From: Reclinomonas americana ATCC 50394
Taxonomy: Eukaryota
Length of the DNA stretch: 37,752 bases
Assembly: GCA_048213135.1 (NCBI GenBank)
Contig: PS015136.1
Location: 36,734 to 74,485, forward strand
Reading direction: 5' to 3'
Part shown: positions 1-37,752 of the stretch, piece by piece
Layout: the number at the start of each line of letters is the position of its first letter
How positions within the stretch are numbered: the stretch's first letter is position 1
The notes under the pieces: model-generated
Told to the model about the DNA's origin: nothing
The model's input: only the letters and a program-made list of their open reading frames with translations
Database searches by the model: none
Translations under genes and position numbers: made by a program

Positions 1-2002
1 CTGATCAGCACGCTGCGGTACGCCGGCAGCGACTCGGCCAGCATGTGCGCGATGCAAATGACAAACTCCTCCGGCTGCATAGTACACGCATGTGCGTGCG
101 TGTGAGCACGCCACCTCTTGCATACATAAACAAGTGGATGGAACGCAACATCGGCACTTGCTGGATTGGCATAGTCCACAAAGTACGCGCCCACCACTTG
201 CTGCTGTGCCGGTCTGCCGACGGCGCGAGATGACTGTGCGGCCAACTAAGAAAAGTGAGGAGAGAGGGAGAGAAAGAGAGAGATTTGACGAGGAGGACAC
301 TAGAAGTGAACGAAACTGGATCATGGAAGCGACGGAGAGCGATCTGGGCCAGTTGCGCAAAGAGCGCGGTCTTTCCGGTACCGGCACCGCCAATCACGGC
401 GAGAGACTGACTGCCACTCTGTTGCGAGATGGTTGAATGAGCAGGAGTGGCACTTTTAACACCGCACCGAATGGACGCAACCGTCGCCGCGGTGGACTCG
501 AGCATGTCGTAGAACCACTCTCGGCCAACAAAACCACCCAGCTGATTGCAGGCGGCCAGCGTCTGCTGCGCCTGGCGGAAAAAGGCACTGACGAGCGGCC
601 GGCTGCGCTGCTCGGCTTCACACACAATGTGCAGGCCGTTTGCGACTTGCATCTGCAGTCGTTGCCAGCCGATCTGCATCTCCGAGTCGGAGAGCACCAC
701 TGTGCGTGATGTCAGCCAAACAACACAAATACTCTCTCTCTTATTCCACTCAGAAATGAAGATATACAAACCGCTGTCGTCGGCAAACTTGCGCAGTTCG
801 ACCAAATCCGCGTAATGCGAGTACGGCATGCCGACCTTGAGCTGATGCGTCTCCAGGTACTCACAGGCCGTCAAAATGTGCGTCACGTGCTCGCGATACG
901 TCGCCGGATCGAAGGGACTGGTGCGCAGCAAGAAAAAGACCGCAGCTCGCATCACGTGGGAGATGGTGGCCACGGATTCACGCTGCGGAGGTGGATGAGG
1001 AGCGAGGGAGAGAGAGAAAGTGTTGATCCCACTCACCACTCCAGGCAATAGCACGTGCTCGTCTCCGTCGCTCACATTCATGAGGACCGCCAGGCAGATT
1101 TGCAGTGACCAAGATCTGCACGACGAATCAAATCAAGTGGGTGAGAGCGGGTGAGTGAGTAGGTGAGGGAGGGTGAGGGGGAGAGGAGAGAAGAAATACG
1201 TGGACGGGTGAGGGAGGATGAGGGAGGATGGGGGAGGATGAGGGGAGGATGAGGGGAGGATGAGGGAAGGATGAAGAGACGTTGCGAAAGGATGAACAGA
1301 GAGAGGATGAGAAACGATGAATAGAGCATGAGTGAGCGCAACAAGCACGAGTGAGAGGGCAAACGAGGATGGGCACGAGCAAGTGGGGTCAGGATGCTAA
1401 TGCACACACGAGATTGGAAAACATACAGAAAGCAGAGAGCAAAAGCGATGCATAAGTTGAAGCCAATATAACACGAAGCTCCACATGAGATCTTCCCTTC
1501 CCTCGATCGCCCTCCTCCATCGCCCTCGCTCACACTCACCGACACTGATGCTTGAGTGGTGCGCGCCTCCACTCGGCAATCTCGCGCGCCTTGCTGCTCC
1601 CCGCCACCGTCGGATCCGCGGCCGCATACTCACTCCACCACTGCTCCACATCAAAGCTCGCATGGCGGCGACAAAAGTCGGAGAGACGCGCGTGCGACTC
1701 GCGCTGGAGAATGCACTCCACGTGCTGCGAGACTTGCATGAAGCGAGCGTAGGTGTCGATTCTGGGAGAGAGATGAGCGAATGAGGGAAGGGCAGTGATG
1801 TGAGTGAAAGAGAGAGAGTGTGTGTGTGAGTGAGTTGAGGGAGTGAGTGAGTGAGTGAGTGAGTGAGTGTGTGTGTGTGTGCGTGTGTGTGTGGAGTGAG
1901 TGAGCTTGCATGCATTAGTGACTAAGGCGACGGATAATGCACGCTTACGGTCGACTTAGGCGACGCCTATGTGCACGTTCTCCCTCTCTCTCTCTCACAC
2001 GT

Positions 2003-2037
<35 letters not shown>

Positions 2038-2305: not shown

Positions 2306-3629
2306 CTGGTTGAGTGAGTGAACTTTCACCCGTTTTGAGAGAGAGAAGTCATCATGTCGCAGAGGCCGGTGTCGATATGAGCACGGGGCTTGATAGCCAA
2401 CCTTCTGCTCTGCGCGTACGACATGCACGGAGGCACACAAACATGCACCGCTGCGGAGATATGAGACTGATATCGATCTTGGCGTTGACGTGCATATGCA
2501 TGCGCAAACGCAGGTCCATCATGAACGCTTTTACGCATAGCAGGCACACAGCTGATCCTCTGTCGTGCGATATGGCACTAAGCTGGCGCCGTTGTCTGCA
2601 TTACAGCAGCTCCTCTGTGCTCCGCGACAAATTTCGCGAGGTGGTGAGAGATCGGCGTTTCGTTTTTCTCCACGTGCAGAGCAGCCTCTTCAGCGCCGTT
2701 TGGCCATATAGTGTAGAGCATGCACCCCGTTAAGATGAGCCGAGTTGCTGCGTCAGAGTCGGCAGCGCCACTGAGGAGGCGTCGAATTACATGTGTCGAT
2801 CGGCGAATTACGCAACGGCCTTGTCACCGCACTGTTTCTTTGTGAACTGCCCTGCTATGATGTGGTGCGCCATGCGGGAGGTAGTCGCCAGCTCGGCGCA
2901 CTAACCTGCAGGGAACCAACACGCGGAGCAACTCTGTAGCTGGGGCTGGAACGGCCACGGCCAATTGCAAGTATTCCTGATCGCCCTCGAAGAACCGCTG
3001 GCAACCTAACTGTGCCTTGCACCAACGCCGTACATGGCACTTTAGAGAAGGTACCTCACATGTACCTTGCTGGAGGTAATCGACGAATGCATCGACTTTG
3101 AGCTGGATATTCGCTTGGCCAGTTTCACCCACGAAAACTGCAACCCAGCGACTGCTGCGTCGCATTCACTGCTCATAAACTCTGCACACGGCATGCCACG
3201 CATCTTCACTCCACATTCTCTTGCAGAGACATGCATGAATCATGCAAGCGTGCATGCAAAAAGAGTATCGCGAGTGCAAACACACAACCGTTACGGAAAT
3301 CGTTCGCGGCAATTCAATCATTAGTCGAGAAGTCGCACGTTGAGCGCACGCTCTTTCGCTCACTTTCTCTCTTTGCTCTCTCCACCCTCTGCCTCGGTGC
3401 CTCATCCTCGCGTGCGTGCAACACAGACCACGTGTCTGCGTGTGACCGCGAGCGCCGTGCGCACACTTCTTCCTTCTCCTTCTTTCTTGTCTCTCTCTCT
3501 TTGCTTTCAAGCGTGTGCGTGAGTGCACTGAATGATCGCCTCACGCGCACATGGTGGCGTCCAGCACCTTCTCTATGGTGCGTGCGCTCCACCTTCTCTC
3601 TTTCCTGTGTCGTTCACCATGCACTCACG

Positions 3630-6600
3630 ATGTCCATCTTCTTGCTCATCACTGCAGCACTCATTGTTGTGTGTGTACTTGTCGTGGTACCACACGTGGC
3701 CGTCGCCAGCAACACCACGCCACTGAGTAGTGTGACGATTACGGGCTCGATCGTGCTGGCCTCTGCTGACTCGCTAACATTCTCGCTGCGGCCTTCACGA
3801 TCGTACGAGCCTGCAGACGGCGCCAACCCAATGATCGAGGTGCGCAGACTCTTTGTTCCTCTCTCTCTCTCTCTCGTGCATAGTCTCACACTGTGCTCTC
3901 CTCTCTCCACGCGCGCAGGTCCTTCCCGACAACGACAATGCCCTTGCCATGCTTCCCCTGAACCCCGTGCTGTGCCCTTGGTCGGGCGCCTACACCCTCG
4001 TCGGCAACTCCACCGACACCACGCCGACGGCAACAGCCGACTACGGCTTTGTGGTGTGCACGTTTGGTGAGCAATGCCACACTGTTGTTTCACTTTCTCC
4101 CTGCACTCGTCCTCACCGAGTCCTCTCTCCTCGTCCAGCTCGACCATTGCAAAGCACCGGACTACCGTACACGCGCTTCCGTGCACGTGTTTCCACGGTG
4201 GCAGGCAGCGGTCCGCAGTCGCCTGCCATGAACTCGAGTTGCGACCGTTCCCGTTGAGTGCCTTCTCGCAGCTCTGAGTCACTCATGACCCTGCTTGCAG
4301 ACGTTTTGTTGCTCGACACCTCGGTGTCGGCTGCCGTTCTGTCGCTGGCCGACAGCGTGCTCACCGTGTGGTTCAAGGCCAGTGATGCGGCGGACAGCAG
4401 CTTCGGCCTGTCGCCGCGCTATGAGGTGCACTGGCCGCCAAATTATTCGAGAGGAAAGTCTTTGACAAAAAACACTCACCTCTTGTTTCCCCACCGTTAC
4501 AGATCATGGCCATGTCTGATCTCGCCACCCCTCTCCAACCCGTTGTGGGCACCGACTGCGTGTGGAGCACGAATAACACCGACCCGGTGACTTGCATGTT
4601 TGCACTTACCGACAATTACAACGCCACCAGCATGTTTGCTGCTCGAGTCGCCACAAATCAAGTGGCCGGCATGCCGAGCGCCACTTTTGCGCCAGGTTTC
4701 GTGTCTCTTGCTTTGTTTCCTTCAGCTTTGTCTTGTCTTCCTCATTCTGGCGCACAGTGCAAGTGTTGAATGTCGGTGGATTCGACAGCGTGCGCGTCGT
4801 CTCTGGGTGGGTGAACGCCATCACCGTGGTGGGTACCGGCTTCTCTGGTGGCGATCAGTTCCGCGTCATCTCCACTGCCTCGTCGTGCAGTGACGTCGCC
4901 GTCACCAACGCTGCGGCCGTGGTATACTTGCAACGCTCGTGGTCTGGCCACTCGATGCACGTGCTATCGCTCGTGGTCGCTGGCGAAGGAGAGTATCAGG
5001 TGCGTCGGGGCATTCTTGCGCTTTCATGTGTAATGCATCGACACTCATCTCCTCTGTGCATGCACGCGATCAGCTATGCATGAAGTTCGCGCAAGGCACA
5101 GTGTTTAGCGCCATTCCGTCACCATTGTCCACATTCATGGCAGTGGCTCGTTGCGTTTTCGATTCGATTCTCTGCCCCTGTCCTCTTTATTTACCATCTC
5201 TCTCTCCACACACACACACACAGCCGCGGCCTACAACTCCACTCTTGTTGGTTTCACGGGCAGTCCTGCAGTTGATCCGCAACTCGTTGATGCCGCCATT
5301 GCTGGCAAGGGTGTGTGCATTTCTCGCGTTCACACCACCACTTTTGCTTCATCACTCATGTTGCTGCGTGCCTTTTCCTCACAGGACTCACCATCGACGA
5401 TGAGATCGCCGTGTCGCGCAGCCCCACTTGCGCATCGAAAGAGATCACCGGTTTTACCATTGTCGGCGCCGAGCTCATTTCCCCGGAGCTACGCACCTTC
5501 CACATTGGTGCCAGTGTCGGTGGGACGTACTATCTGTGCATTCGTTTCCGCGGGTCGGCTGCGTTGACCCCAGTGGGAAGTGCACCGTTCTTGGTCACCG
5601 GTGCGGCAATCCCGCAATGAGTTAGAGGAGCATCTTGCATGTGGAAACTCACTCCACACCTTCTCTCTCTCTGTTCGCGTCTCCTTGCACTCCCGCAGGT
5701 ATCGTCGCCAACATTGCACCGGCTGTCCTGCTGACGGACCGTGCCTCCAATCTCACCATTATCGGCTCCGCGCTCACCTCCGACGACAAATTCTTCTTTG
5801 TCCGCAGCAACTGCGCGGCCGCCGATCCAGCCACCAACTCCTCCGGCGTGGAGGTGCAGGTGTTGCCGGGGAGAAATTCCACAGTTACTCAGCTGCAATC
5901 CACTGCACGTGGGCTCGGCGACTTTAGGCTCTGTGCTCTGTATGCCAACAGCACACAACCGGTGGACACGGGCTTGTCGATCACTGCGCACGGTTTGTTC
6001 GAATTGCTCTTAGTGATTTTTCCTTTTCTTCCGCGTACTTACCTGCCCCCGTCCGTGGCACTACAGCCGAATTGAACGGCATTGCACCCTCCATTACCGT
6101 GGTCTCCATGGCTGTCACTGTGTCGGTGAATGGTATTGGCCTGCGGCCACAGTTCGGCTACAAGTTCGTGTCTGTGTCGGAGAACGACGGTTGCGGTTTC
6201 CCGAACAGCGATGCCGATGCCGCCGCCCCGATTCACTCCGTAGCGACGGCCTCCGATGGATCTGCTGCCACTCTTGAGCTCAGCACACCTGCCGTGGCCA
6301 GTACACTCTCGCTCTGCATGCGCGAATCCGTCGACTCGCCATACGGGCGAACACTGCTCTCGCTGACCGTGCGCAGTTGAGTCTTTTCGATCCGTCGCCC
6401 TCATGTTTAGCACAACTAACGTGTCTCGCCCGAACGCCACAGCTGTTGCGGTTGCGGAGAGTGTGTTGCCGTCGTTTGTGCGCGCCGGCGCCGGACTGAT
6501 CAGCACCATCACACTGGTTGGCAACAATTTCGAAGAGTCGACGGCCATTCGTCTGGTAGCGTTCGATCAGAGTGCCTCGTGCAACATGAATGGGGAGCCG

Positions 6601-9600
6601 AGCAATTCGCCTGCCGTTCTCTCGCTAACCACTGCGCGACCGACCTCCACTCACTTCCTCGTCACTGTCACTGTCGACTCACCGGGCAACTTTGTGGTGA
6701 GGCGCTGAGGGCGAAGTAATATTTGTTTTCGCACCGATGTCTAATCTCTGCTCTCTCCACCACGCAGCTGTGCATCAAGCCAAGCGACATTCTACCGTAC
6801 GAACAAGTGGGTGGTGTCATCAAGAGCATTCCCCGTTGCGTCTCAGTGTTCCTCCTTCAGTTTCTCTCCACATTGCCGATTTCTCACCCTTTCTTCGCAG
6901 CGCAAGCCACATCTTCGTCGTTGCAGGAAATGCAGGCAACGCAGGCGAACTCACAGCCGCAGGTGTTCCCGCTGACAGTCTACGGCAACGCACTGGATCC
7001 GACCGACAGGCTGATGGCTTCGGCGTTTGGAAACGGCTGCGCTGAACTGCCGGCCAATGTGGTGAACTTGGCCACGCCGTTCGCCACCTCCAACAGCACC
7101 ATGTACTCCACCACTATTTCGGCCACGGTCGGCGGCTATTACGAGCTGTGCGTCAGCTTCCAGAACCGCACGCCAAAGACTCGTGTGCTGTCAAGTGGAC
7201 TTGTTGTGCGCGGTGCGTCGTCGAGAGCAAGACGGTCTCCCATCCTTCTTTAACCGCCACTCACCTCTTGCCACACGCGCAAACTAGGTCTCGTGGAGTC
7301 GGTGTCGCCCCTGTCGGTGCCGGCCGACAAGCCGTCTATCGTCACAGTCCGTGGTTTTGCCTTTGCCGCGAACGACACTTTCATTGCAATTCCGGCGACG
7401 GCCTCGTGCACCTCCCCTCCACCAACGGCCACAACCACGCTGATTCGAGATGCAAGCCAGTCGACACCCACAACTGTGGTGCTGACACTAACGCCGGTGC
7501 TCGGTGGCACTGTTGATGTTCGACTCTGTGTGCGATACTCTGGCGTTTTGGCACCGGTCGCGGCGACGACTTCCATTATCTCCGTTGTCCGTTGCGTTTC
7601 TTCATCCACTAATTGTTCACTCGCGCACTGCTCGTTTTTGCTGACTTCATGTTGTACAGCGCGCCTCGACAGTGTGTCACCACTTCGTATGCTGCGAAGC
7701 AGTCGCACCACCATTACCGTCAGCGGCGTCGGTCTGCGATCGACTCTGCAGTTGCGGGCGGTGATGGCCGACACACCAACCGGCTGTGGCAACTCGACCA
7801 GTCTGATCGACTCGGTGGCGGCGTTCTCGTTGACCACTGTGGATCTGTCGGGTGAGACAGCGTCGTTTATCATGGAGCCACTGCGCTCTGGTTCGCTTCT
7901 GCTGTGCACGCGAACCAACCAGTCGGCGACATTCACGGCGCTGCAGCCCGGCACTGGCATGACCATTCTTGGTTGGTGTAGACGTTGGAAGGGGCTGTGC
8001 GTGTGTGTGTCTGTGATTCGTTGACTGATGAGCTTGCAGATTTGGTGACCTCCATGAGCCCGCTGGCCCTGCGTGCCGGTACCGATCTGGTGAATCGTGT
8101 GACTCTCGCCGGCAACATGTTCCGTCCGGACGATATTGTGGCGGTGGGCGATCCCAGCTTGCCGTGCTCCGCCGTCAGTGCAATCGCTCTCTCCATGCTG
8201 GTGTCGAGTCCTTTCAGCGGGAACAACACGCTTGCCACGGCAACACCGCCACCGTTGCAACCCGTTGCACCATCACGGCAGTCGAGCGCGGCAGTGACAT
8301 TTGTCAATGTCACATCCACTACCGACACGATGCATACTGTCGACATTGTCGTGCGCTTGCCTGGCACTTACACGGTCTGGCCTCAATCAGTCTCGTTGTG
8401 GAGATTTGCCTGCATGGTCCTCACTGAATATCACGATGCAGCTGTGCGTCAAATCCGCTCTGCTGAACACCTTTATCGTGCCAAGCAGCAATACTACTCT
8501 GGTGGCGCTCCTGCGTTGCGTCACTCTGCAGCTCGCCTCCCCCGTTTAATGGCATGCTCACTGCGCACCGCATGCACAGCCTCTGCCTCCACAACCGTCA
8601 CAGAACACATTATTCCCGTCAGCTTGCCGTCGCCTTCCCCGCCATCCATCGTGCCGCTCACCCTGCTAGGCGTCATGTTCACGCCTGCAGATACATTCAG
8701 TTTCGTGGACGCCTCGACTGTTGGCGGTTGTGCTCTGCCGGGCAACTCCACTGCACGTGTGGTAGATGCGACTTTCAAGTCCAACACCACGTTTGTGCTC
8801 TCTGTGGCCGCCACTGGCGGAGGTCACGTGCAACTGTGTGTGCGCTTTGCGTTGCGCGTGCAGCCTGAACCGGTCGCCGAGGGCGAATTCATTTGTCGAG
8901 GTTCGTGTGATTCGTGATCCGCATCTTTGTCGGTGCCCCCTTCTCACTTGCCCTCTGCAGGCGCGTTGCGCTCCATCTCTCCCACGAGCGCGGTTGCCAC
9001 GACAGTGGCACTGCCGGTCACGTTCTCGGGATACGGCTTCACATCGGCCGATATCGTGATCCTCATTCGCCTGGCGACCCCGTCCGCTGCTGTCTCCTGT
9101 GGCACACTGGCCACAGCAACAACACCGACCACCGACATGTTCGTGGCCTCGAGTGTGGTGGCCGACGCCGCCGGCTTGGTGGCCGTGGTCACGTTTGGCC
9201 AGCTGTCGGTGCCCGGTGGATGGTTTGGAGTATGCATTGGTGCGGCCGGCAGCAGCATGTTTGCCGCGCAACCGCAAGTGGTGTTCCAAGTCAAGCGTGC
9301 GTACCTCGATGTTTTTTGTGAGCTTCCACTTGTTCCTCTATTCACTCACCACCTCTTGCATGGCGTCTCTTGGCAGCATCGTACACGTCGGTGCTTCCGC
9401 TGCAATTCGACACCATGTCGCCCGCACCCTTTGTCATCACTGGCGTGGGCCTGTACAAGGGAACGAGTCTGCGCTTTGTGCACGACGCTGGAGCCGGTAG
9501 CTGCGGTGGCACTGCGGTGGTAGACGCAACACTGCCGACGATCAGCGGCATCACAATGCAGCCCGATGGCACTGCGCTCTCCGGCACTTTTTCGGCCATC

Positions 9601-12600
9601 AAGAGCGGCAGCTACCGCTTGTGCGCACTCGCCGACATTTCGTTCGAGTGGGTAGCGATGCCCAGCACGGTGTCTGTGGTGGCCGATTCCATTGTGCCCA
9701 CAAACGTCACCGTCACTGGCATTGTCGTGGACGGCTTTGTCATCTCGTGGGACTCGCGAGTGTCCAACAGCACCAAGAGCACGATTGATCGCTTCTCGGT
9801 CGTTTTCTCCACCCCCGGCTCCACTGCGGCCACCGAGCTCACCGCCGCGTTTGACGTGACATCGGTTCGCCAGTCGGTACGTTGCCTGACATGCGACGAC
9901 GGTCCCGAGCATGTATCTCATTACTATTGATGTTCTTCCCCTGTGGCAGCTGCGTGTCACCGGACTTGCCTCCGAGACATTTGTGTCGTCGCTGCGTGTG
10001 TACCCGTGGATCAAGAGCACCGGAAAGCGCTACAGCGATTACGGAGAACCGTCACCCAACTCGTTGACCACGCTCACCACTGGCACGTTCAAAATATGAT
10101 TGTCGGGTGATTGCAAGTGGCTCTGCTGATGACTGAAGTCTCTCTTGTCGCGCAGCTCCGACTGCGGCACCCGCCGATGTGAAACTGTCTGGCATGACAT
10201 CGGAGCCACGCAGCTTATTGCTGCAGTGGAGCGCTGTCACCATTGTCGGCTTGACGACCAAGTTCAACTATGTAGCGCAGTATCAGCGTGTTGGAGGCTC
10301 CGCGTGGCTCCCCCAGAATCCGGTACCCATTGGTCAACTGAGTACGAAATTCATGGGATTGCTGGCTGGTACGGGCATGTGAAGTGGTGCAGACAAAAGG
10401 GGTAGATGATTCATTCAATCTCTGCATTCGCTGCAGGTGTGTCGTATCGCGCGCGCGTCAAGGCCGTGTCCAATGGAGGCGACGGTCCGTGGTCGTCGTT
10501 GGCCACTGCATCCACAGCCACGGATGGTACTTTGCGAAGTCTTCTCTCGCCTTCCGTCTAGTCGTCTCTGACACCAATGCCCTTTGCACAATGCAGGCTC
10601 ACCTCTGCCTCCGACGAATGTGACTGTCAGCACAAGCCCAGTGCGTGTGGCCTGGCAGCAACCAACAGCACTCTCCACCATCACCGTCGACTCGTTCCTC
10701 ATCGTCTTCTCTTACTCGGGGTGAGTTGTGCAAGAGTCGAAAGTCACACACCCTGCGCACTTGCATCTCATTCATCAGTGCAGTGGTGCCGAGACGCGTG
10801 TGACAGTATCCGACGCTGCGGCGCGGTTCTTCTTGCCGACCGTGGACAAGCTGCCGGTCGGCATCGATATTGCGTGCCGCATGCAAGCTATTGCCGGCAA
10901 CAGCCAGAGTCCGTACTCGGATGCTGCTGTCTTCCAGCTGGCAGCCGCCAGCACGGCTTCGGGTCCCTCACTGTTCCTCACCTTCCCCGATCCGTCCAAC
11001 CCCACGGGCTTGTACGATGGCTCGCCGGTTGGCGGCCAATTGATGCTTACCGACCAGTCGGTGGCCGGCGGCACGGCCAACATTAACCTGTTGGCGGCCG
11101 GCGATGCACTGCAGTTGCGCACAGTCACTGCTAGTGAGGTACTGGGGAAACGAAAAAAACACTCACCTCTGTGCTTGCGGCAGATTCGACACTGGCGGCG
11201 TGGCGCTGGTGCAGCTGTCAGTGACGACATCTGCAACGGTGAGTTTTAGGGGGCACATCTTTCTCCACAACGTTCCTCCTTTGTGCTCGTCTAACCCCAC
11301 ATTCCAATGCTCAGGCGGGCTCAATTGGCACTCTTGTTCGCTCTTTCGACCTGAGCGCTCGTGCCGTGTCCATCTCCAAGATGACGACCTCGTCGATTGC
11401 GACGCGTGACACTGCTCCCGCTGCTACTGCACCAAGTGGCAGCAACGCGTGGCGTCAACCGCTGACGCTGACCGCCACCATTTCGCCACCGGTGCGTTTG
11501 TAATGCGGTGTATGCGCTGAGGGCCACCGAACTCATGCATGGTTGCGCGTGCACAGAGTGAGACTGCAGCTCTCATGGTGTCGACCTCGTCCGGTGGATG
11601 GGTGGGTGCCGACGGTCCCTTGTGCTCCAATTTCCCAGATGCCCCCAGACCCTCGTACGACAAGGCGTCCGGTGTTCTGCAAGTGCCGATTTGCGGTGCC
11701 GGCTCGTTTGGTCTCATGCGCAATGTTGGCGTCGTCACTCGTGCGTCACTCATTTCTTTCCGCGAATCCCGTGCTTGCTGTCGCCACTCACAAAAATGGG
11801 CCTCCATATCGCACAGCTCCACCCTCCAACTCGGGCGACTCGGGAAGCGGCACCAACGGCAACGGTTCCTCCGGTAGCGGAAGCACGCAATCACTGGCCA
11901 AACCCTGGTACCGCAGCGCCGGTGCCATTGCCGGTATCAGCGCCGGTGCGGCGGCAGCCTTTGCTCTCATCATCCTTCTCATTGTGGTGATTGTGAGGAG
12001 ACGCCGTGCCAAGCGCCTGGAGAGCAACAAAGTTGCGCGCTCGCACGTGTGTGTATACGCACATTAGCGACCAGCAGTCTCACTCTTCTTCCGCTTGTGT
12101 TCGCACAGGCTGGACTCACGATCACTGCGGCGGACGACCCCAACGGTGCCAACAAGTGGCCGATTCGTGACGAGAGGCGACACTCGGCGATTGGCTTGCT
12201 GGATCCGACAAGCCTCCACAGTCCCATGGCTGGCGCACAGCCGCCGGCGTCGCCAAGCGCATTCAAGCACCTCAGTACGCCCAAGTTAGTGGCGGGGGCA
12301 GCCGGCAGCGATTTGGCCACGGAGAGTGGCTCCGAATCGACGAAGCGCGCCACCATGATGCAGACGCTGAGCGACATGTCGACGACACATCCGTCGAGTG
12401 CCGGCAGCTTCGGTTCCATGTCACGCGACATCAACTCGGAGTTCGCCCGGACGCCAGGCAGTCAGCCACCTCACGACCACGCGCCGCATCACATCGGAAC
12501 GACGTTTGTCACTTTCGATTTTGATGGCATGACTGCGGACGACTTGCCGAGCGAGTACCTGGAGACGCTGGACGACTCACCAGTCGGCGACGGTCACGGC

Positions 12601-13011
12601 GGCGACGGATCGAGTGCACCGGCTATGCTAACACCACAGCCAGCCACTCCCTCCGGCACCTTCATGCGACCAATGGCCCTCTCGCCACGCACCATGGCCG
12701 ACGACGGGTGGACCGTGGTGCGCGAGGATCGCAACCTCTCGCCGGCCTCGGCCGCCGCCTTGGCACGTCGTCAGCATCACCACGGTTCGTCGGGAAGCAT
12801 CAGCCCCGCCGAGAGCGAAGACGTCGCCACGGCGTCGTGGGCTCACGTGGCGCCACCAGCCACGGAATCAATTTTGGATGTCACTCGCACGCGACGAGCA
12901 GTGGCGGCCACCACCGGCGGCCTGCCCAGCGGACGCAACAGCGCGCGTCCCTTCCAGACCGGCACCTCTCCACCCAAGAGTCGCGTACCGGTCTTCCTCA
13001 AGCCGCAGTGA
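3630..13011 (+). CDS. Large type-I membrane/surface protein: signal peptide, FN3-like N-region, 12 Cys-paired IPT/Ig-like repeats, ~3 FN3 domains, juxtamembrane beta domain, one TM helix, Ser/Pro-rich cytoplasmic tail (~31 exons, ~2400 aa)
   Basis: ATG 3630 gives a hydrophobic leader MSIFLLITAALIVVCVLVVVPHVAVA. 30 phase-compatible introns join the ORF pieces. FN3 motifs include SLLLQWSAV...YVAQYQ...LLAGVSYRARVKAVSNGGDGPWS. TM AIAGISAGAAAAFALIILLIVVIV is followed by RRRRAKR. Many N-x-S/T sequons. TGA at 13009-13011. Confidence 0.85.
10083..10155 (+). other. GC-AG intron
   Basis: acc act g|GCACGT...cgcAG|ct ccg act is the phase-1 join that keeps the FN3 frame (TLTT-APTAAPADVKLSG). The nearby GT at 10087 gives the wrong phase. 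Confidence 0.65.
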
Positions 13012-13134
13012 GCAACAGCGAAAACGAAAACAAGAAGAACATGTGTGCAGCGACGCCACCAGCAGCTGCAGTATTAGTTTGTGTGTGTATACGATGATGC
13101 ATATTGGTACTCTAAAACAAAACAAACGGGGAGG

Positions 13135-13705
13135 TCACTTGGTCTCCTCCTGGAGGGTGGGAGCAGAAAGTGAGGTCATGGTCAGCGATGTTATGCTGCA
13201 TGAGTCGCACCTCTACATCCCAGCCGTCGTCTCTCAGTTCCTGAATGAGTTCCGCGGCGCGCTGTTTGGGCAGGTGAGAAGGGAGGGTGAAGGGTAAGGG
13301 AAGGAGAGAGAAAGGGAAAGGAGGGGGAAAGGAGAAGGGAAGCGAGTGAAGGCAGGCAAGGGACGGCGAGAGACGAGCGAACAACAGACAGAGACAGGCA
13401 CAGAGGGAGAGAAGGGAGAGTGACGCAACGTCATCGGCAGGCGACGAGTGTGATTCTGCAGGCTCCGCATCTCCATAACGCGACCGATAGGCAAAGAAGA
13501 GTGCAGTGAGGGAGCCCACCAGGAGGAGCACAGCACGTGCGCCACGCTGAGTGTGAGAGCCAGGGAGACACACACAAACGCAGAGTGAGACAGGGTGACA
13601 AGAGAGAATGCATTCAGCAAGTGCATGTGCAAAGACCTTGGTGACTTGGCGCACAATGCCCATCGCCTCCTCAAAGTTCTTGTCGGGTATGGGTGCACTG
13701 CTCAT
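13135..13705 (-). CDS. Small single-pass membrane protein of unknown function (~83 aa, 4 exons)
   Basis: Spliced: MSSAPIPDKNFEEAMGIVRQVTK|RGARAVLLLVGSLTALFFAYRSRYGDAEPAESHSSPADD|RAAELIQELRDDGWDVE|EETK*. Three phase-0 introns have CTCAC branch-like motifs and pyrimidine tracts. Confidence 0.65.
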
Positions 13706-13767
13706 CTCCTCTGACGCCACAACTGAAGACACAAGAGACACGAGAGACAGGACTTTTTACTCATTGA

Positions 13768-16327: not shown

Positions 16328-16396
<69 letters not shown>

Positions 16397-27845: not shown

Positions 27846-27896
27846 TCGACACCCAATCCCACTAGTGTATAGAGCAACCAACCTCGCATGTTTATA

Positions 27897-30800
27897 TTAC
27901 TCATTTGCATTGTCGTTCTCCGTGAGACCCAGCGATTTGAAGCATTGCATCACGTGCCGCACGCGGAGCAAATTCTCACGGCAGCGTCCCAGCCGGTCGT
28001 TGAAGTGCTGATGCACGATGAGCTCCAGCTCATCGCGATCGGCGGCCGCGAGGTCCTTGACGCGCACATAGCCGGCATTGTGGAACCACGAGAGGAGGCG
28101 GAGTACGTAATCGTCACTGTTTCGCCGGCCGACCAGTGGAGTGTCGATCAAGAGCGACGACTTCCACAGGCGCACTTTGGCGACCACCGTCGGTTTCACC
28201 ACCGGGTACCACCGACGGCGTCGAATGCGCACGGCCGCCGGTAGAGCCTCTGGCCTCCTGGTCGGCAAGTACTGCTCCTGTCGCCCGGTGACAGTGATAG
28301 ACTGCAGTGCCGGTGCGCACGCGACCAGTCCGCTCAACGCGTCGTCCACGTGGTGCACATCTGTGTTGGATCAAGAGCCATGTGAGCAACAGTATCCATG
28401 TGCTCTCTCTCTCTCTCTGCTGTGGCAAACACAAACCAATGAAAACAATGCTCGTCAACAGCGGCAGGGTGCACAAAGTTGGATCCAGCAAGCGCAATTC
28501 CAAGGCATCCACCCGACGCAATGTCAGTTGACGCAGCGACGGCGCGCATGCAGCAACGGCCGACCGCAACGAGTGCGAATGGCAGAGCTCCACTGGAGTG
28601 CAACTGAACGTCAGAATAACAGTAATCAAGAGTGACGGCCGTGTCAGTGACACCTCACCTTCTGAAATCACCAAGTCTTCCACCGCCTGACACCGCTCAA
28701 TGTGCACACCACCAATTGTGGCTCCGAGGAGACTACAGTGAGCCACGGCCACTGACGGGTTCGCAGCACTCGGCAAAAGCGGGAGAGCGCGCCGAGGATC
28801 GACGCTGGCCGCACCGCAGCGGAGCGACATGAAGTGGAGCAGCGCCTCCCGGGCGCGCCGGCAACCCGCTCGTGTATACAGACGTGCAGCAGGAGCAGGA
28901 ACGGCAAAGTGATGGATACGATGCCGCGGCCTGGCTGGCAGGGGCAGAACATGGAGACCGTCGACGTCCTCATCAAACTCGGCGACCCAGTCCACCGCAA
29001 TGGCTGGTCCCACCTCGTCGGCATCGACTGGCAGCTGCAACAGGTCGACCACCAGCGGCGCCGGCCGTGGCTGGCGTCGATTACGCTCACGAACCTCTTC
29101 TTCATCGGCGTCGTCTTCCGCTGCCCTTGGTGCGCCATCCAGTAGGGCGGACAACTGGCTCGGAATGGTGTCACCTGCGGCGAATAGGACGAGTCAAACA
29201 AGTGCACAGCGCATCGCACTCACTCACTCACGCAACATTGTGCATCAATGCTGCGCAGTGCAGCCAGCATCGCATCAGGCAGGTAAGTTCTGCAATATCC
29301 GAGTAGCACATCCAGAATGTCGTGCGATTCTCCCAGCACTGCAATGATGGTGGTCAGCAGGTGATCACCAAGTTGCACTTCCTCTTTCCCCTCTCTCTGT
29401 CGCTCACCAGGCTTATCGAGATATCCCGGCAGCTGCACAAGCACACACGATGGATCGCCATTCATGCACGAAATCTTATACGAGTAACCCGGCAGCTGCT
29501 GATCGTCGTCGTCTGCTGGTCCGAGCTCCAGCGCAATGCAGCACACTTGGCGGACCAGGCAATCGGCCAAGGCGCGGTACTTGTTGTGTGCCTCGTTGAG
29601 AGCATCGTCAAGCTGCAGAAGCACGAGGGGAGTGAGGGAGAGGCATGCAAGAGCAAGAGTTGAGGAGGAACATGGCAAACCAGCTTCAGCAAGGCGCGCA
29701 CATGCCGGTACGTCAAAAACGCATGATGGACAATGCGCTGCAGTTGATTTGCCAGCTCTGACGCCGCTCTGCTCTTCCCACTCGCCGTATGCTCCACCAG
29801 TTCTCTCACCACAACACGCGTTGCATCCACCCACTGTTCGCGGAACATGCGCAAGTCGATCATGAAGTTGCAGTCACCACCGGCGATTCGCATGACTGTT
29901 TCCTCCACTTGTTGTGCTGCGCGCACCATCATGATTCAACACTCCCGGCGACCAGTTGTGCGAGAGACAGACAGCTGCAAGAGGCGCGCACCATGCTCCG
30001 CGGTCTTGCTGTAGAACGTCTCGAGTGCACTGACCACGGCAGGCGCAAACAGCACAATGCTGACGGCTTCGGTGAGATCTGCGGGCACACACGTGTGAGA
30101 TGAAGGGCCAGGGAGAGAGAGAGAGAAGGAAAGATGAACGTAACCTGGCGCGGCCCAAATGTCGGTCTTGATGGTCAGTGTGCTGCCCTCCAGCTGTGTC
30201 ACCCACAGAGTTAGTCCACGTACGCAGAAAGAGGAAGGAGAGAGATAAAAAATCGCGGTACCTTGCAGGCACTGGCCAGCGGATGTTCATACGAGTGCTC
30301 GAGATGAATCTCCGAGACTGCTCGCAGTGTGCGCAAAATGTGGCGAGCAAGCAGTGCACGTAGCGAACGCTGCGCGCAACGAAAAATCAGGAGGAGAACA
30401 GTGAGCAACCAAAGAGGAGAGATAGAGAGTGTCCAACGGCCCACACGCAACTGTCAACTTCATAAACTTCTTGTCGTACCGCGAGGTGATGGCAAACTGC
30501 GTGCCGTACCACGACCGCAAGCTCGCTACCACATCCTCCACGGGCGACACATGCCGAGTAAACAAGTCGCACAACGCCATAGGCCGTGTGGGGTCGTCCG
30601 GCAAGATATCGTCGAGAGCCTGTGTCACCGACGGCCAGTGCACAGTCATGCGCCAGCGATCTGTAATGTCGTCCAGCATGGGCAGCAGATCAAAGTTGAC
30701 CGGATTGATGGGCAGCTCCCGCATGCATCGCGGACTGATAAAGTGATACTGAAGTTGTCGACGCAGTTGCTGCAGTACATCATCGCCGCCACCACAATCA

Positions 30801-33800
30801 TCAGCAAACAAGAGCGTGCAACCGAACGACACACAGATAACTCGCTTACCTGGGGAATGATACGCGACTGCAGCGCCAGTGCCGCGGCCTTGTTGTTCAT
30901 CTCTTGCAAGCGTTGACGCAACATTGGCGGCGGCACCATCTGACCTCCTATCCAGCAATTGCCGTACTCGTCGTCGTCAACGAGGAACACAAAGTAGATG
31001 CGATCGCGTGTCAACTTGTTCTTGGATACGACGAACGGATCCTCCTGCGGGTCGCACGCTTGCAACACCAATTCGACCGAGTCCACACCAAACACCTCTT
31101 GACGTGCGGCCTCAATCTCGCGCGTGAACGGACCCTGCTGCAGCGACAGCAGTGGCTCGTAGACGCTACGACACATGGTCATTAGCTCGGCGGCATCGTC
31201 CTAGACGAGGAAATGAGCAAAAAGTTGCGCGTCGCTCTCGCGAACAACAGACGCAAGCAGTAGTACCTCGTACAAGTGCATCCGGCTGCGTGAGGATCTG
31301 CAGTGACGGTGAATCGACTCCCAGTCGATGGTGATGGTCAGGCGGAAGAGCGACTTGTCGAGTTCGCGATCCGGCCAGTGACGAAGCGGGCGGAGATTGG
31401 CGAGTTTATACTCTTCGACACGACGCCATGCCTCCTCCAGTTGCCGCTCCACGTGGGGAATGAGCAACTGCTGTGTTGGCGTACGTGGTGCGCCGTCGAT
31501 GACGCCCACACGCAGGCGGACTGCACCACCAATGTCGGCCACCGTGCAGGCCACTTGCTCTGCAAATTGCACACACAAGAGGGTGACTTCCAAGCTTCCG
31601 TTTCAACAGGGACACAAGTGCAAGCGCACCTGGAACGGTTGTGAACGAGACAGAAACGGTACCACCAAAGCGCGGATAGCCCCGTTGCAGCAGCTGTGCC
31701 ACATGTCCGAGACACTATCGACAAGCAGCTTGGTGAGTTCAAGCAGCGAGAAGTGTGCACTGACATCCTACTCCTCAGCCCACCGTCGCCGTTGGCAGTG
31801 CACTGATGAAAATGCATTGAGACATGGCATCCCCGCGACAGGCGGCTGCGAGAGTCGCCCAGTCGACTTGCACCACCAATCCCGGGCACACACGGGCCAG
31901 CGCCGGCACAGCTTCCGCATTGAATTCGTCAATATAGTCCTCCACTCTGCGGTGCATCCAGTCAAAGTCACCAGCTGCCGCGGCTTGCAGCCGAGCCAAG
32001 TGCCGCAGATCGAGCCACGACAAGGTGCTGCGCGTCTCCGAAGTGGGAACCACCGAGAACGTCGTCTCGAATGCAGGCACCCGCGCCAGCCGCCGATCGG
32101 CCGCTACAGTCGGCAGTTCCACGTCGGGATGCCACTGCTGCTCGACTGTTTCGAGTTGTGCTCCAGAAAGATCTGTACCCATGCTGTGAGAGTCACCCCC
32201 CTCCTCTGCAGTGGTGCCACGAAAACAGACGCAACTGTGGTACCACAGCCGAACACGTGGATTGTGCTCCAACCAATGCCGCTCGTCGCCAGCGGGCAGC
32301 AGGTATGGCGGCAACACCGCCGCCAGCGCCGCTGCCGTACTCACATGACCGACGGCGAGAGCCTCTGCAATCGGGTTGCATTCACCGGGACCCAGCACAG
32401 GGCTCAACAGCTCGCTCAGTTCGGCAAGTGTCATATGTGCCGTGGCCCGCTCCAGCGCTGCGCAGTTGGTCAGTCCATGCAAACACACTCTGAAAATCGA
32501 TCACGAGGAGACGCACCCACGGCCACCAAGTCAGTCAGTCCGTGTCGAGCAACAAAGGAGAGCACTGCCGGCCCCACACCGGCTCCAACATCCACCATGC
32601 GATGCAGCGCGACCTCAAATCCCCTTACCAGATGCTGCTGCATCGACAACTCGAGTGCGCTCTGTACGACCTCTGCGTGCTGCTCCAGTGGTTCTGGCAG
32701 CACCTGCAGCAGCCGCACCAGGCTGGCCTCACAATCGCCTCGCAAATTCGCTAATTCGCGAAGCACTTGCGCCGGTGGAATGCCCGCTTGCCGCACATGC
32801 TCGACTGCACCAAGCGACGAGATTGAGCAACAATCGTCTCTTAACGTGACAGCGACAAAAACGCAACTGGCGGAGGGGCGAGAGAGGAGGACATGCCATG
32901 TATCCCATCGCGTGTGCTTGCAGGTTTGCGGTACTACAGTGGCCTCCGCGGCGACGGCCGCCGGCGTTTGCAAGAGGTCGCGGAAAAGACCGCACGCACC
33001 CAGCTGTTCCGTCATGCCCAAGAATTCGTCTGCAACTGCAGCATCATCGACGCCAATTCCACGCAGTGTGCGCAACACGTGTGTGTGACCGCACACACGC
33101 GCCATGACCGCGCAGGCCATCTGTCCGTCGGCCCCCGGTGTGCTCCACTGGTGGAGATGGGATATATGAGAGATGCTCTTCCTCTCCGTGAAACCACAAA
33201 GAAGAACACTCACCGACAACGGCGTCCACACTTCCACTCCGTGTTCTTTATGGACCTGCGAAATGACCGCAGCGAAACCACGCTCGGCGCAAATCTCCTG
33301 CACACTCTGCTGCGGTCCGTCCACCTCCTGTGCGTACGTCGCACATCATGTCAGTGGCGAGAAGTCCCCACTTTGATTGGGAATAAGCACGTACTCGTTG
33401 CAGCAACAGGTCGGGTGAGTAATGCTGATCGCTGAGATAGGAGAGCAATGTGGCCTCACTGGCATGCCGAGCCAACGTCAGGACAGCCGGTCGCCGCGGC
33501 AATACGCCATACTGATCACGGAACAAGTGTGCCAAATTGAGAGCGCCGCGTGCCAACGCCACATCGGTCCACGACACGGTGCCATCCTCCGTAAGTGGAC
33601 TCTGCATGTAGACGAGAGGATTGTCGCACTGCGCCACAATGCGAGCCACAATGTGACTTGCTCCACAACGCACAGCGAGGCCAAGCTCGCTGCCCACGAG
33701 AATCTGCACGCATAAATGAGAACTGAAATATGACGCGATGTGTCGCCTCCGCACGCAATTCAAACCTTGCGGACGCAGCGCGGCCACGTGTCCACCACAG

Positions 33801-36800
33801 GCTGGATGGGAGCGTGGCCGAACTCGGGCACAACACCTCGATCGAGCAACATGGCCGCGAGCGCCGGTCGCTTGTACCACAGGCACAGTGCCAGAGGCGA
33901 GCGCACAGGAGTGGCGTAGTCCGGTCCCATCCACGACTGCCACAGTCGAGAGTCGCGCTGATCAGTGGCCGGCACACCAAACTGGAAGTGCACAGGAGTC
34001 AGTGCAACAGCGAGTGAGTGGTGAAGGAGCATTGTAAAACGGCTCACCAAATCGATGAACTTGGCCAGCAATTCCTCCTGTCCGGCTTCGATGAGTGCTC
34101 GTGGCAGTGTCCACGCCGACAACAGTTGCATGCGCACGCCGACTGACAGGCGACGCAGCGGCTGACTGCCAATTGCCGGCAGCGGTGGCTCACGAGGAGG
34201 TCTCTTCTCCAGCACCAGTCGGACTGCGTCCCACTGCTGGCAATAGGCCGCCAACATGAGCGCCGTCCAGCCGTCACCCAGAATGTCGCTGCAATGCGCG
34301 CGCGGTCAGTGGACGACAAAGAAACGTTGGAGGGATGTCTGTGTGGGGCACACGCGCCGCACCGATTGGGATCGACATTCTCGCAGTCCAGCAGCTGCGT
34401 CACGAGTGGTACGATTCCCGGACCGCGATCGGCCACTTGAACCCAGCCGAATGGCGAAAAGAAATGCGCATCGCCTCGCGGCCGTACCACAATACTCAGT
34501 ACGAGGGCGTCGTACGACAACGTGAGCGAACCACAGGTGCCAGTGGCCACCACGTCCGGTCGCGCACCAGCGCGCAGCAAGGCACTAACCAGCGCCGAAT
34601 TGCCCTGCGGAGCACGGAAAGAGAGGGATGGACAAGAAAAATCAACAACACTGCCCAATAAAGGAAGATTGCTGCACTTCGCTAGACATACCATACAACA
34701 GGCGGCCATCAGTGGCGTCATCTACACCGCCGGTGTCAGCAACGCTTACGAAGGATTTGACGACAGCAAGCGAATAACGTACTTGGAGCGACACCACTCG
34801 CATGTGTACGTTGCCTACGCGGAGAGGCGGCAGTAGGGCGCCGGGAACCTGCCACGTGTGATCGAGAGCCGGTGACTGCGGCGGGTACCGTTCAAGCAGT
34901 GCGTACACGACAGGCAAGCGGTCCATGAGAATGCACTCAGCCTGGCGTGCGGTCAGCAGAGCGAGTGAAGAACGTGGAGGTGGATCACACATATACCAGC
35001 GTGCTGGAATCGGGGGAGCCTTCGACGACCACACTGTCTGGGAATGCCTGCGTCACACACCCACTGTCAAACAGCAGCATTGACGCAGACAGAGGTGATG
35101 CACAGTGGACTTGACCTCCAAGCATGCCTGCAACGACGACAAGCTGCACGTCGCCGCATGCGCCAGCACACTTCGCAAAGGTGACCGTGCTTGTGATGTG
35201 ATGCCAGACAAGGCCGGAGGTCGCGCAAACAACGGTTGCTGTTCTCCCTCACGCCACGAGAGAAACTCGCGTCTGTTGGTGTTTTGTGGGGGATTTTTAG
35301 CAGGGACTGGTAGCACATGAAAGAAGAGGTGTGACGAACCCGTATCCCTCCATGACCGAATCGGCCACGTCTCTCGGCATCACCAAGGCACGCAAATTGC
35401 CGAGTGCAAGACTGTCTCGTCCCGTTGTGCCACTACTCTCAAAGTGCACCCGCCGAACGCCAGCTCGGAAGCACGAAACCACCGTGACAGCGTTGCATTC
35501 GTTCAATGCGTACTTGGCCGGCACTTGAATCACCGGTGGCTCGGCAGTCACCGCTCGAACTCTCTCCAGCAGGCTGAGCGACTACAAGGCGGCGACGTGA
35601 GTCGAACACTGGGGTTGCCACGCCGAGGGCACACCACTTGCAACTCAACTGTCGTTGTCCAACCACGGCCGACCGTGATGCCGAGCAGCTCCGTCAGCAG
35701 CTCCAAGTCCAGCTGCGGAAGACGCTGCGTGAACGTGTCGACCTCGTCCTGAGCGATGCTGGAGATCAGTGCTTTCATCGTCGTGCGCTCTTCGTGGGTC
35801 GCTGGCGTGCCAACGCGTCGAAGCAAGACTGCTATGCATTGGCGGCAATCGTGCGCCAGAGTAGAAAAGGAGCCAGTCTCATCCACAGATAAGTCGACCA
35901 GGAATGTCGGTTGTCGCTGCACGGCGAGTGCGAAGTGGTAAGCAGCAGGCGATTGTTCAGATTTCGGGACATAGGAGAACTCTTCGCCGTACCGAGGCCA
36001 CCCAATGAATNNNNNNNNNNNNNNNNNNNNNNNNNNNNNNNNNNNNNNNNNNNNNNNNNNNNNNNNNNNNNNNNNNNNNNNNNNNNNNNNNNNNNNNNNN
36101 NNNNNNNNNNNNNNNNNNNNNNNNNNNNNNNNNNNNNNNNNNNNNNNNNNNNNNNNNNNNNNNNNNNNNNNNNNNNNNNNNNNNNNNNNNNNNNNNNNNN
36201 NNNNNNNNNNNNNNNNNNNNNNNNNNNNNNNNNNNNNNNNNNNNNNNNNNNNNNNNNNNNNNNNNNNNNNNNNNNNNNNNNNNNNNNNNNNNNNNNNNNN
36301 NNNNNNNNNNNNNNNNNNNNNNNNNNNNNNNNNNNNNNNNNNNNNNNNNNNNNNNNNNNNNNNNNNNNNNNNNNNNNNNNNNNNNNNNNNNNNNNNNNNN
36401 NNGTTGCCTGCCAACAGACCGCGCAACAATTCAACGTGCGACCACGAGAATGTCGAACCACCCGCATCAATTGCCGCTGCCATGCCTGCACAGCACAGAG
36501 AAATACGAGCATGAAACTTGGAGGAAAAAACAAGCTGCACACACGCTGCCCCCTTGTGGCCGACGTACCTTGCGCATACGCAACCGTAATTGCAGCATCC
36601 AGCGCGATTCTAGCTGCATCGTCGCCTACCCCCAGCAGAGCGTGGAATAGACTGCGACGACACGCGTGTCACGGATGGAAGGAGAAGTGTCGGTCAATAT
36701 TGATAGGTGGTGTGTGCGTACCGCTCGTGGCGTGCACCGGCGGCCAGCTCGAACGCAGCCTTCAAGGCTCCATCGGCGAAATCCGCACCCAGATCCTTCA

Positions 36801-37752
36801 GCACAAATACAATGTCGACGCGCTCCTCCATCTCGTGCAGCCGGTACTCATCGTGCACCTGCGGGCATGTGTGTTGCGCAATTCGCAGACAGAAGCTACT
36901 GAGTGCCGGTACAGTGCAGGCTGCAACGACAGCCTGATTCAACTCCTTGCGAGTGAGTCGAACTGCACACGGAGATGAGAATATTTGCCGAAATGGGGAG
37001 AAAGGACTGGAAGATGTGCAGACCATGTGGAGCGACCACGCGCACTGTCANNNNNNNNNNNNNNNNNNNNCGTGTGCACGATGAGTCAGTGAGAAACAAT
37101 GGAGGAGGAGGAGGAAGAGGCAGCGATGACACACCAAGCTCCAGGTTGCCGATCCGGCAAAAGAAGGTGAATGGCGAACTCTGCGCGGGTGAATCAAGGA
37201 TGATGATAATCGAGATGGTGGTGCGCATCGCAGAGGACCAAGCGTTACAACACCTCAAAGTAGGCAACCTGTCGCGTGTACTGCGCAACAATGGCCAAAT
37301 GACGCTGTGTCGTCGGATCGACAACCGCTGTGCTGCACGACCACACAGGAGCCACGTGTCTGCCAGACACTGTGGGTTGGAGACGGGAGAGCACAAACTA
37401 TGCATGGTTGCATACGAAACGATCGACCGCAGAGCCACCAGACGATTTCCGTGTGTCCACGACTGAGAGCATTGTTGAGGAGAGCGGGCTTGAACTGCTC
37501 GTACCAAATGTTGCTGACCAAGACTTCCGCCTGCGTCGATATTGGAGAGTGAGCGAGATACTGCAGAGAGAAGCAGAGAGAAAAAGAACACGCTTGCTCT
37601 TACTCGCACGCAACAATGTCACTGGAGTCACGAAGCGAAGCGTCGAATTCGAACTGGCGATTCCGCAGAGTGCGATCGTTGACGAACTGGGCGGCCACAC
37701 CCTGCACGCCACGGCTCCGTTGGTGACTGTTCGCAGTACCGCTGACGGAAAA
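27897..37752 (-). CDS. Very large ankyrin-repeat-containing protein with repeated alpha/beta modules and a C-terminal LRR-like region; partial (5' end beyond window, two gaps inside)
   Basis: Phase-compatible introns link the minus-strand ORF pieces from 27897 up to the gap at 36011-36402, and further exons continue to the window end. Ankyrin motifs MTPLMAACCM|GNSALVSALLRAGARPD, GWTALMLAAYCQQWDAVRLVLE, SPLALCLWYKRPALAAMLLDRG. C-terminal ACAPSLRQLTL/ACAPALQSITV resemble LRRs. Confidence 0.7.
36011..36402. other. Assembly gap (other gaps: 2066-2173, 16034-16326, 17764-18114, 37051-37070)
   Basis: Runs of N. Confidence 0.99.

Follow-up and report, generated by a model that had tools for sequence, protein, structure and literature searches.

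The window analysed here, a stretch of 37,752 bases of contig PS015136.1 from Reclinomonas americana ATCC 50394 (about 58% GC, interrupted by 5 N gaps), carries eukaryotic genes that are densely packed on both strands and broken up by very numerous short introns. It is nuclear DNA of an intron-rich flagellate eukaryote, and its introns are ordinary GT-AG introns of about 70 nucleotides (nt). The genes, whose identities were assigned from single exons, include BBS4 (cilium), a cyclin-like gene, a receptor-like gene, a large ankyrin-bearing gene and a gene with a thymidylate-kinase domain. The subject of this report is a class of 5′ splice sites (donors) which begin with GTT and carry a conserved G at the sixth intron position (+6), most often as GTTGCGT. 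An initial annotation of the window had listed 27 such sites, had proposed that they form a second common donor class, and had linked them to shifted base pairing with U1, a small nuclear RNA (snRNA). It had taken their frequency to imply an adapted recognition by U1/U6/U5 or a variant snRNA.

As circularity was to be avoided, the introns were placed with a Viterbi gene model that was neutral towards the donor, i.e., it was given GT/GC, AG, an acceptor profile and the codon usage learnt from long open frames, but no donor profile. This model placed 95 introns, and the commonest donor hexamer was GTTGCG (13 introns), followed by GTGTGT (5), GTGAGT (4) and GTGCGT (4). GTTGCG makes up 41 of the 2404 GT sites on the sense strand, so that 1.6 such donors would be expected where 13 were chosen (binomial P = 1e-8). 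The T at +3 has to be present: 56 sense copies of GT[A/C/G]GCG gave rise to 1 donor in the neutral model, compared with the 13 from 41 copies of GTTGCG. A second model, which started from the neutral-model introns, trained itself without supervision on a donor mixture of three components. One component became ‘ccaGTTGCGTct’ with a weight of about 0.34, and the remaining two became ‘gAG/GTGcG’ and ‘TcG/GTGcGT’ (here and below a slash outside brackets marks the cut). Donors of the form GTT[G/T/A][C/A]G account for 17 of the 95 neutral-model introns and 25 of the 88 trained-model introns, i.e., for about 18–28% of the donors in the window, and at least one of them occurs in each of the seven gene spans (7/7), on both strands. 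The initial count for the complete genes, 17 in 65 introns, is comparable, and the claim of a second common class is borne out by the excess in the neutral model together with five junctions placed by protein homology (see below).

The simplest objection would be that the GTT sites are artefacts, namely chance hexamers near true donors, products of the gene modelling, or the result of a T added during assembly. GTTGCG is not a rare hexamer (41 sense and 20 antisense copies), the high GC content gives rise to spurious open frames of considerable length, a motif can be strengthened by self-training, and the assembly is gapped. Against this stand the donor-blind enrichment just given, the spread of the sites over all 7 gene spans, and the strand asymmetry of the heptamer GTTGCGT, which has 18 sense copies, 3 antisense copies and 1 copy between genes; 16 of the 18 sense copies were called as donors. 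The two that were not called lie at 30922 (-), in apparently good coding sequence, and at 36584 (-), in a poorly modelled stretch where the copy may be an unrecognised donor.

All of the 27 sites listed initially start with GTT, and 26 of them read GTTGCG, GTTGAG or GTTTCG (19, 4 and 3 sites) as had been stated, whereas the one at 30144 (-) reads GTTACG. At 3 of the 27 the motif is preceded by G. The neutral model chose 16 of these sites and the trained model 23; the four not chosen by the latter are 16768 and 27096, which are supported by homology, 4253, which is rivalled by 4238, and 35649, which lies outside the model coverage. The GTT-class donors and their introns are as follows (“both models” denotes the neutral and the trained model).

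75–149 (-): intron, donor GTTGCGT at 149; both models.
234–316 (-): intron, donor GTTTCGT at 316; both models.
419–481 (-): intron, donor GTTGCGT at 481, preceded by G; both models.
4238–4300 (+): intron, donor GTTGCGA at 4238 (models) or GTTGAGT at 4253 (initial annotation), 15 nt apart and both in frame.
4696–4757 (+): intron, donor GTTTCGT, preceded by G; both models.
5150–5223 (+): inter-domain phase-1 intron, donor GTTGCGT; both models.
6376–6442 (+): inter-domain phase-1 intron, donor GTTGAGT; trained model.
6835–6900 (+): phase-1 intron, donor GTTGCGT; both models.
7591–7659 (+): inter-domain phase-1 intron, donor GTTGCGT; trained model.
8515–8603 (+): intron, donor GTTGCGT, acceptor 8579 or 8603, each in frame; models and frame continuity.
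11114–11183 (+): intron, donor GTTGCGC; both models.
12032–12108 (+): phase-0 intron after the transmembrane segment, donor GTTGCGC; trained model.
13262–13429 (-): intron of 168 nt, donor GTTGCGT at 13429; both models.
13990–14059 (-): intron, donor GTTGCGT at 14059; given in its 70-nt form ending in CAG, the trained model having joined the donor to 13806 instead.
16768–16837 (+): BBS4 intron, donor GTTGCGT; homology, unique best junction with a score of 218 (next 208), gapless ARSL/HLLG alignment.
17509–17579 (+): BBS4 intron, donor GTTGAGG; both models, gapless YVA/AISCLK against homologues by eye.
17672–18671 (+): BBS4 intron, donor GTTGCGT; homology, unique best junction (272 vs 261), and trained model.
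21453–21524 (+): candidate intron of 72 nt, donor GTTGCGT, in frame and free of stops; trained model only, absent from the initial annotation.
24517–24586 (+): intron, donor GTTGCGC; both models.
27096–27174 (+): intron, donor GTTTCGT; top of 80 GT/GC-AG candidates scored with 9 homologues, by a margin of 14.7.
27663–27730 (+): intron, donor GTTGCGA; top of 105 candidates scored with 6 homologues, by a margin of 8.6; both models.
29175–29236 (-): intron, donor GTTGCGT at 29236; both models.
30079–30144 (-): intron, donor GTTACGT at 30144, preceded by G; both models.
30370–30451 (-): intron, donor GTTGCGT at 30451; both models.
32146–32235 (-): intron, donor GTTGCGT at 32235; trained model, an acceptor giving 63 nt being in frame too.
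32805–32867 (-): intron, donor GTTGCGT at 32867; trained model.
35582–35649 (-): candidate intron of 68 nt ending in TAG, donor GTTGAGT at 35649; frame continuity only, outside the model coverage.
37561–37614 (-): intron, donor GTTGCGT at 37614; both models.

The long BBS4 intron at 17672–18671 contains an N gap and tandem repeats of 63–72 nt (18197–18521). The candidate at 21453–21524 lies within a long coiled-coil exon and has CTGAC motifs and an ACAG end; it may be coding sequence just as well as an intron that is optional or retained. A candidate GC-AG intron was also called by the trained model at 10083–10155 (+), with the donor ctg/GCACGT, where the neutral model took the GT at 10087.

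Five GTT junctions were examined against homologous proteins, and all five (16768, 17509, 17672, 27096 and 27663) were placed exactly and without gaps; the other GTT sites are placed by frame continuity only. The scoring was exhaustive over the GT/GC-AG pairs. The BBS4 homologues run without gaps across 16768, 17509 and 17672, and the first and the last of these are the unique best junctions in the exhaustive BBS4 scoring. The sites 27096 and 27663 were scored against intronless homologues of a C-terminal domain, and an ordinary junction at 27407 was recovered in the same way as a positive control. At 27096 the homologues favoured the GTT donor, yet both gene models had picked the wrong donor at 27066, and the GTT class therefore misleads gene prediction. 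Outside the window, none of 41 non-redundant BBS4 junctions (55 before the removal of identical contexts), from 25 metagenome loci of other eukaryotes, has a GTT donor with G at +6. By this comparison, which is a small outside control, GTT-class donors may be peculiar to the source organism.

The anatomy of the introns was compared between 22 GTTG[CA]G donors (class 2) and 45 ordinary donors with G at +5 (class 1), both taken from the trained model, in which all 25 of the 25 GTT-class introns start with GT. The median intron length is 70.5 nt in class 2 and 68 nt in class 1, the 3′ end is CAG in 22/22 and 42/45 introns, respectively, and a branch-like motif, CTVAY, lies within -50 to -8, some 10–30 nt before the 3′ end, in 17/22 and 37/45, CTVAY being a motif chosen for this analysis and not a mapped branch point. 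The features of U2-type GT-AG introns that were looked for, namely GT and AG ends, a restored reading frame and a branch-like motif, are all found in the GTT class. Two other origins were considered and rejected. An introner or transposon-derived intron family does not fit, as an all-against-all blastn comparison of the introns gave only 4 short pairs of 15–18 nt. U12-type introns have the donor consensus (A/G)TATCCTT and a branch site resembling TCCTTAAC, and none of the donors listed resembles that donor by eye.

Class-2 donors are stringent: besides the Gs at +4 and +6, which are there by definition, C at +5 occurs in 20/22 and T at +7 in 16/22 sites; among the GTTG[CA]G copies on the sense strand of exons that are not donors, T at +7 is found in 2/20 and A at -1 in 2/20, compared with 16/22 and 11/22 in the donors. 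The donors of the window come in three flavours, i.e., the main G/GTNNG(T) with G at +5, an exon-heavy (A/G)AG/GT without G at +5, and the stringent (C)(A)/GTTGCGT, of which GTTGAGT, GTTTCGT and GTTACGT are rarer forms. Examples with a strong exon end and without G at +5 are AAG/GTACCA, GAG/GTGCAC, GAG/GTACTA and AAG/GTTATA. About 18 of the 88 donors of the trained model fall outside both main classes. In the receptor-like gene, which is built of IPT/TIG-like repeats, the inter-domain introns are all of phase 1 and sit at equivalent positions, and their donors alternate along the gene (GTTGCG, GTGTGT, GTGCGG, GTTGAG, GTTGCG, GTGCGT, GTTGCG, GTTGGT, etc.). As the classes alternate at paralogous introns of the same phase, donor class can switch without a change of phase.

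The two classes also differ on the exon side. G at -1 is found in 40/45 ordinary +5G donors and in 1/22 GTTG[CA]G donors (P = 1e-11), and the same holds in the donor-blind set, with 32/43 ordinary and 3/17 GTT-class sites (P = 9e-5). In its place, A at -1 occurs in 11/22 class-2 sites, to be compared with A at -2 in 10/45 sites of class 1 (P = 0.028), and C at -2 occurs in 11/22, to be compared with C at -3 in 7/45 (P = 0.007). Thus, the exon end of the GTT class, together with the first intron G, mimics the usual exon end (..AG), as it does in shifted-register sites. The initial description of these sites as ordinary donors with one extra T holds on the intron side, where the conserved G indeed stands at +6 instead of +5; it fails on the exon side, and because the exon side changes too, the GTT donors are not simply ordinary donors with a T added. 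For the same reason a sequencing error that inserted a T was rejected, since it would not account for the coupled loss of the G at -1. With the five exact homology junctions and this coupled loss added to the enrichment and the strand asymmetry, the view that the sites are artefacts is already largely refuted, and only a very slight chance is left to it. What is established in the window is the motif, its tie to exon-intron boundaries, the position of the junctions at the level of the protein, and the coupled change at -1; with high confidence, the GTT sites are real donors as judged by gene structure and protein homology. From this we infer the excision of the GTT introns and the exact cut site.

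This pattern would be explained if U1 snRNA reads the GTT class one base out of register. Roca and Krainer reportedly described such shifted U1 pairing in 2009, with GUUAAGU as the human example. The geometry of this register, which is attributed to Roca and Krainer 2009, is summarised in the available text of Tan et al. 2016 (PMC4856993). Applied to the window, the first intron G would pair with U1 C9, the usual partner of the last exon G, the U at +2 would be a mismatch opposite U1 C8, and U+3, G+4, G+6 and U+7 would stand in for +2, +3, +5 and +6. Further pairs, of A at -1 with U10 and of C at -2 with G11, would offset the mismatch at +2. Cleavage would still take place before the GU, and would presumably be set later by U6, U5 and Prp8. 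Complementarity was scored with the 5′ end of human U1 as printed in PMC4856993, from which the organism's own U1 may differ. By this measure class 2 has 5.95 complementary positions in the shifted register vs 3.48 in the canonical one, and class 1 has 3.83 vs 6.41; the link to shifted pairing drawn in the initial annotation was apt, as 20 of the 22 class-2 sites fit better in the shifted register. On this reading the target strings of the two classes, CAG-T-TGCGT in class 2 and NNG-G-TGCGT in class 1, would differ by one base, with the cut of class 2 lying one base upstream. A fitter description of the GTT class would then be an unchanged U1 target in which T replaces the first intron G and cleavage falls one base further upstream.

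The loss of the exon-end G bears directly on a rival explanation, in which U1 (and U6) stay in the canonical register and one U of +2/+3 is bulged out. This would suit the intron side well, since the motif there is exactly an ordinary donor with one more U, and the G at +1 and the U at +2 could retain their usual partners. Such a register is known in humans, where 68 sites with a bulge at +2/+3 were predicted among 201,541 donors, and 51 with a bulge at +3, according to the available text of Tan et al. 2016 (PMC4856993); the low thermodynamic stability of the shifted duplex with a standard U1 (see below) also speaks for it. However, a bulge would leave U1 C9 free for the exon-end G, and the G at -1 nevertheless drops from 40/45 to 1/22, so that the canonical exon-side pairing of -1G with C9 is not seen, in the donor-blind set either (3/17 vs 32/43). 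The excess of A at -1 and of C at -2 is what shifted pairing with U10 and G11 predicts, and T alone is tolerated at +3, although a degenerate bulge specific for U would fit the latter as well. As a bulge would keep the exon-end G, the bulged register is the less likely of the two, and we regard it as unlikely.

Several observations weigh against a shifted register of an ordinary U1. In a nearest-neighbour calculation the duplex with a standard U1 is weak, with a mean of -1.46 kcal/mol for class 2 compared with -6.06 kcal/mol for class 1, and +1G is paired with C9 in the minimum-energy duplex of no more than 7 of the 22 class-2 sites. The base opposite U1 position 5 is C in 20/22, though A would pair with a standard U1, and the register analysis assumes a standard U1 5′ end for the source organism. 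The counts of GTT-class donors vary by model (17/95 neutral, 25/88 self-trained) and are not independent of each other, with the self-training able to amplify its own motif; 9 of the 25 GTT donors of the trained model sit in one repeat gene with paralogous inter-domain introns; and the sample is small, as a single 37.7-kb window cannot fix a genome-wide rate. Finally, for 27096 and the three BBS4 junctions the protein is equally compatible with both cuts falling one base later, the join at 27096 encoding glutamate or aspartate depending on the cut, and the homologues show both residues. This later cut (TT...AG+1) was rejected because it loses the GT and the invariant CAG; the canonical cut was adopted on the grounds that GT and the invariant CAG (22/22), and only these, favour it. 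The weak duplex and the C at +5 leave room for an altered or a second U1. All considered, a common register shifted by +1, read by an ordinary U1, would explain the GTT class with a probability that we place somewhat above even.

The room left by the weak pairing is what a dedicated or altered snRNA would fill, either a second U1 whose 5′ end matches (C)AGUUGCGU, or a lineage-wide change of U1/U6. A candidate form of such a second U1 would be changed at position 8 and/or carry a G opposite the C at +5, and the presence of C instead of A at +5 in 20/22 sites hints at a G in the RNA that reads them. The GTT class is frequent, more stringent than the main class, and built around a near-invariant heptamer, and its pairing with a standard U1 is weak. 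Co-evolved U1 5′ ends do exist, such as AACAAAC in Entamoeba and ACGUAC in Mastigamoeba, but in the same source lineages with GYGCGY-type donors, i.e., Mamiellales and Thecamonas, are given as retaining a standard U1 (Roy and Bowser 2022, 10.1101/2022.06.08.495308, accessible sections). An Rfam scan of the window found no family above threshold, and hence no snRNA gene within it, and a single snRNA with flexibility of register is the more economical assumption. An altered snRNA is in our judgement rather unlikely, though it is, like the bulged register, a live rival. The involvement of the snRNAs in reading the GTT class is in any case something that we infer.

A bolder version would be a true two-register major spliceosome, in which about a quarter of the introns are defined by a dedicated reader and the +1 register is a hard-wired second donor code. 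The reader would be a second U1 whose 5′ end is altered (at position 8 and/or with G facing the C at +5), or co-adapted contacts of U6, U5 and Prp8. Paralogous introns would then swap donor codes while keeping their phase, and the +1 register would not merely be a tolerated mismatch. This we consider a doubtful but real possibility.

BBS4 was identified by the BBS4 matches of one exon, whose best identity in the protein and metagenome collections is 71%, so that no close relative of the window was found there by this exon. The nearest named BBS4 proteins are those of prasinophytes (Nephroselmis, Cymbomonas/Pterosperma), a kinship for which tree support is absent, as a quick BBS4 tree put the window sequence on a long branch without placement. 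The exon of the cyclin-like gene has at most 35% identity to the proteins found. No transcript-derived protein of the source organism was found in the protein searches with the BBS4 and cyclin exons.

The receptor-like gene (3551–13011, +) consists of repeats of about 100 residues that resemble IPT/TIG domains (a weak Pfam match) and have a phase-1 intron at nearly every repeat boundary, followed by FN3-like stretches (recognised by eye, no Pfam match), a membrane segment and a long tail. The gene at 22350–27845 (+), with about 19 introns, combines an SPX-like start with membrane segments, the thymidylate-kinase domain and a C-terminal domain. The proteins most closely related to it, at about 50% identity, are intronless and of bacterial type, some of them of about 1200 amino acids with the same order of kinase and C-terminal domain, and include proteins from bacterial metagenome-assembled genomes (e.g., Elusimicrobia) as well as entries named ‘dTMP kinase’. 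It is possibly an acquired gene of bacterial type that gained its introns later, the GTT-class ones included. Among the repeats of the window, TC/CA microsatellites flank most of the assembly gaps, and introns contain or adjoin an 11-nt GGGAGGATGAG repeat, a repeat of AGTG and a (TC)n run (1212–1274, 1794–1904 and 16329–16392).

Donor recognition by U1 is usually treated as having one register with rare exceptions. If transcripts confirm the GTT junctions, the rank of a shifted-type donor as the commonest hexamer would mean that much of splicing can run through an alternative register, and the GTT introns would supply many natural substrates for the question of how the cut is fixed after U1 leaves. 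The paralogous inter-domain introns with alternating classes would show how donor class changes over time, and a gene finder whose training covers one donor profile only would be expected to misplace GTT junctions, as with 27066 for 27096.

Donors that depart from the common consensus throughout a lineage have been described before. In the accessible part of Roy and Bowser 2022 (10.1101/2022.06.08.495308), a co-evolved U1 accompanies such donors in Entamoeba and Mastigamoeba, but not in Mamiellales and Thecamonas. The main class of the window, GTG(C/A)G(T/C), is similar to the GYGCGY or +4C donors found in Mamiellales, Thecamonas and Mastigamoeba, and the question of U1 co-evolution is common to both. 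These lineages, as presented there, have one consensus per genome in the canonical register, whereas the window has two registers within the same genes; a donor class with G at +6 is not mentioned in the abstract and the text of sections 15–16, logos aside. More generally, no description of a frequent GTTGCGT class with G at +6 was found in the literature, although the figures and supplements of cross-species surveys, which were outside the search, may show one.

A lineage in which a normally rare donor has become common is the copepod Eurytemora affinis, with GA or GG donors in about 12% of its introns according to the part of PMC5714493 available, and there, as in the window, this misleads gene prediction. 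In Eurytemora, however, the GT itself is changed, whereas the window retains GT and changes in the register of the consensus downstream of it. Two classes of human 5′ splice sites, distinguished by U5 loop 1 and the U6 ACAGA, are set out in the accessible text of PMC11732430, and the window likewise has exon-heavy AG/GT donors and intron-heavy donors with G at +5. Having neither the exon-end G nor the G at +5, the GTTGCGT class is therefore a third kind outside that split, as far as this text presents it.

The closest likeness is to the noncanonical registers of human U1, which, where validated, together make up 1.5% of 201,541 donors in the available text of Tan et al. 2016 (PMC4856993). Of those described there, the bulged-nucleotide registers share with the GTT class an intron side that equals an ordinary donor with one U more; unlike them, the GTT class loses the exon-end G and takes only U at +3. 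The shifted-register sites agree with it further, i.e., the intron begins with GU, +3 is U, a conserved G stands at +6, the exon end with the first intron G mimics an exon end, U1 complementarity is better when shifted, and the cut is at the GU (presumably so in the window). They differ in that the core of the GTT class is the GC-rich UGCGU, compared with UAAGU in the human sites, and that in the window the proposed register is read from the sequence. The human sites are rare in that account, whereas the GTT class makes up about 18–28% of the donors in the window and GTTGCG is their commonest hexamer. The shifted-type donor is thus known as a human rarity, and its high frequency here would be the new aspect, pending transcript data and the snRNA genes.

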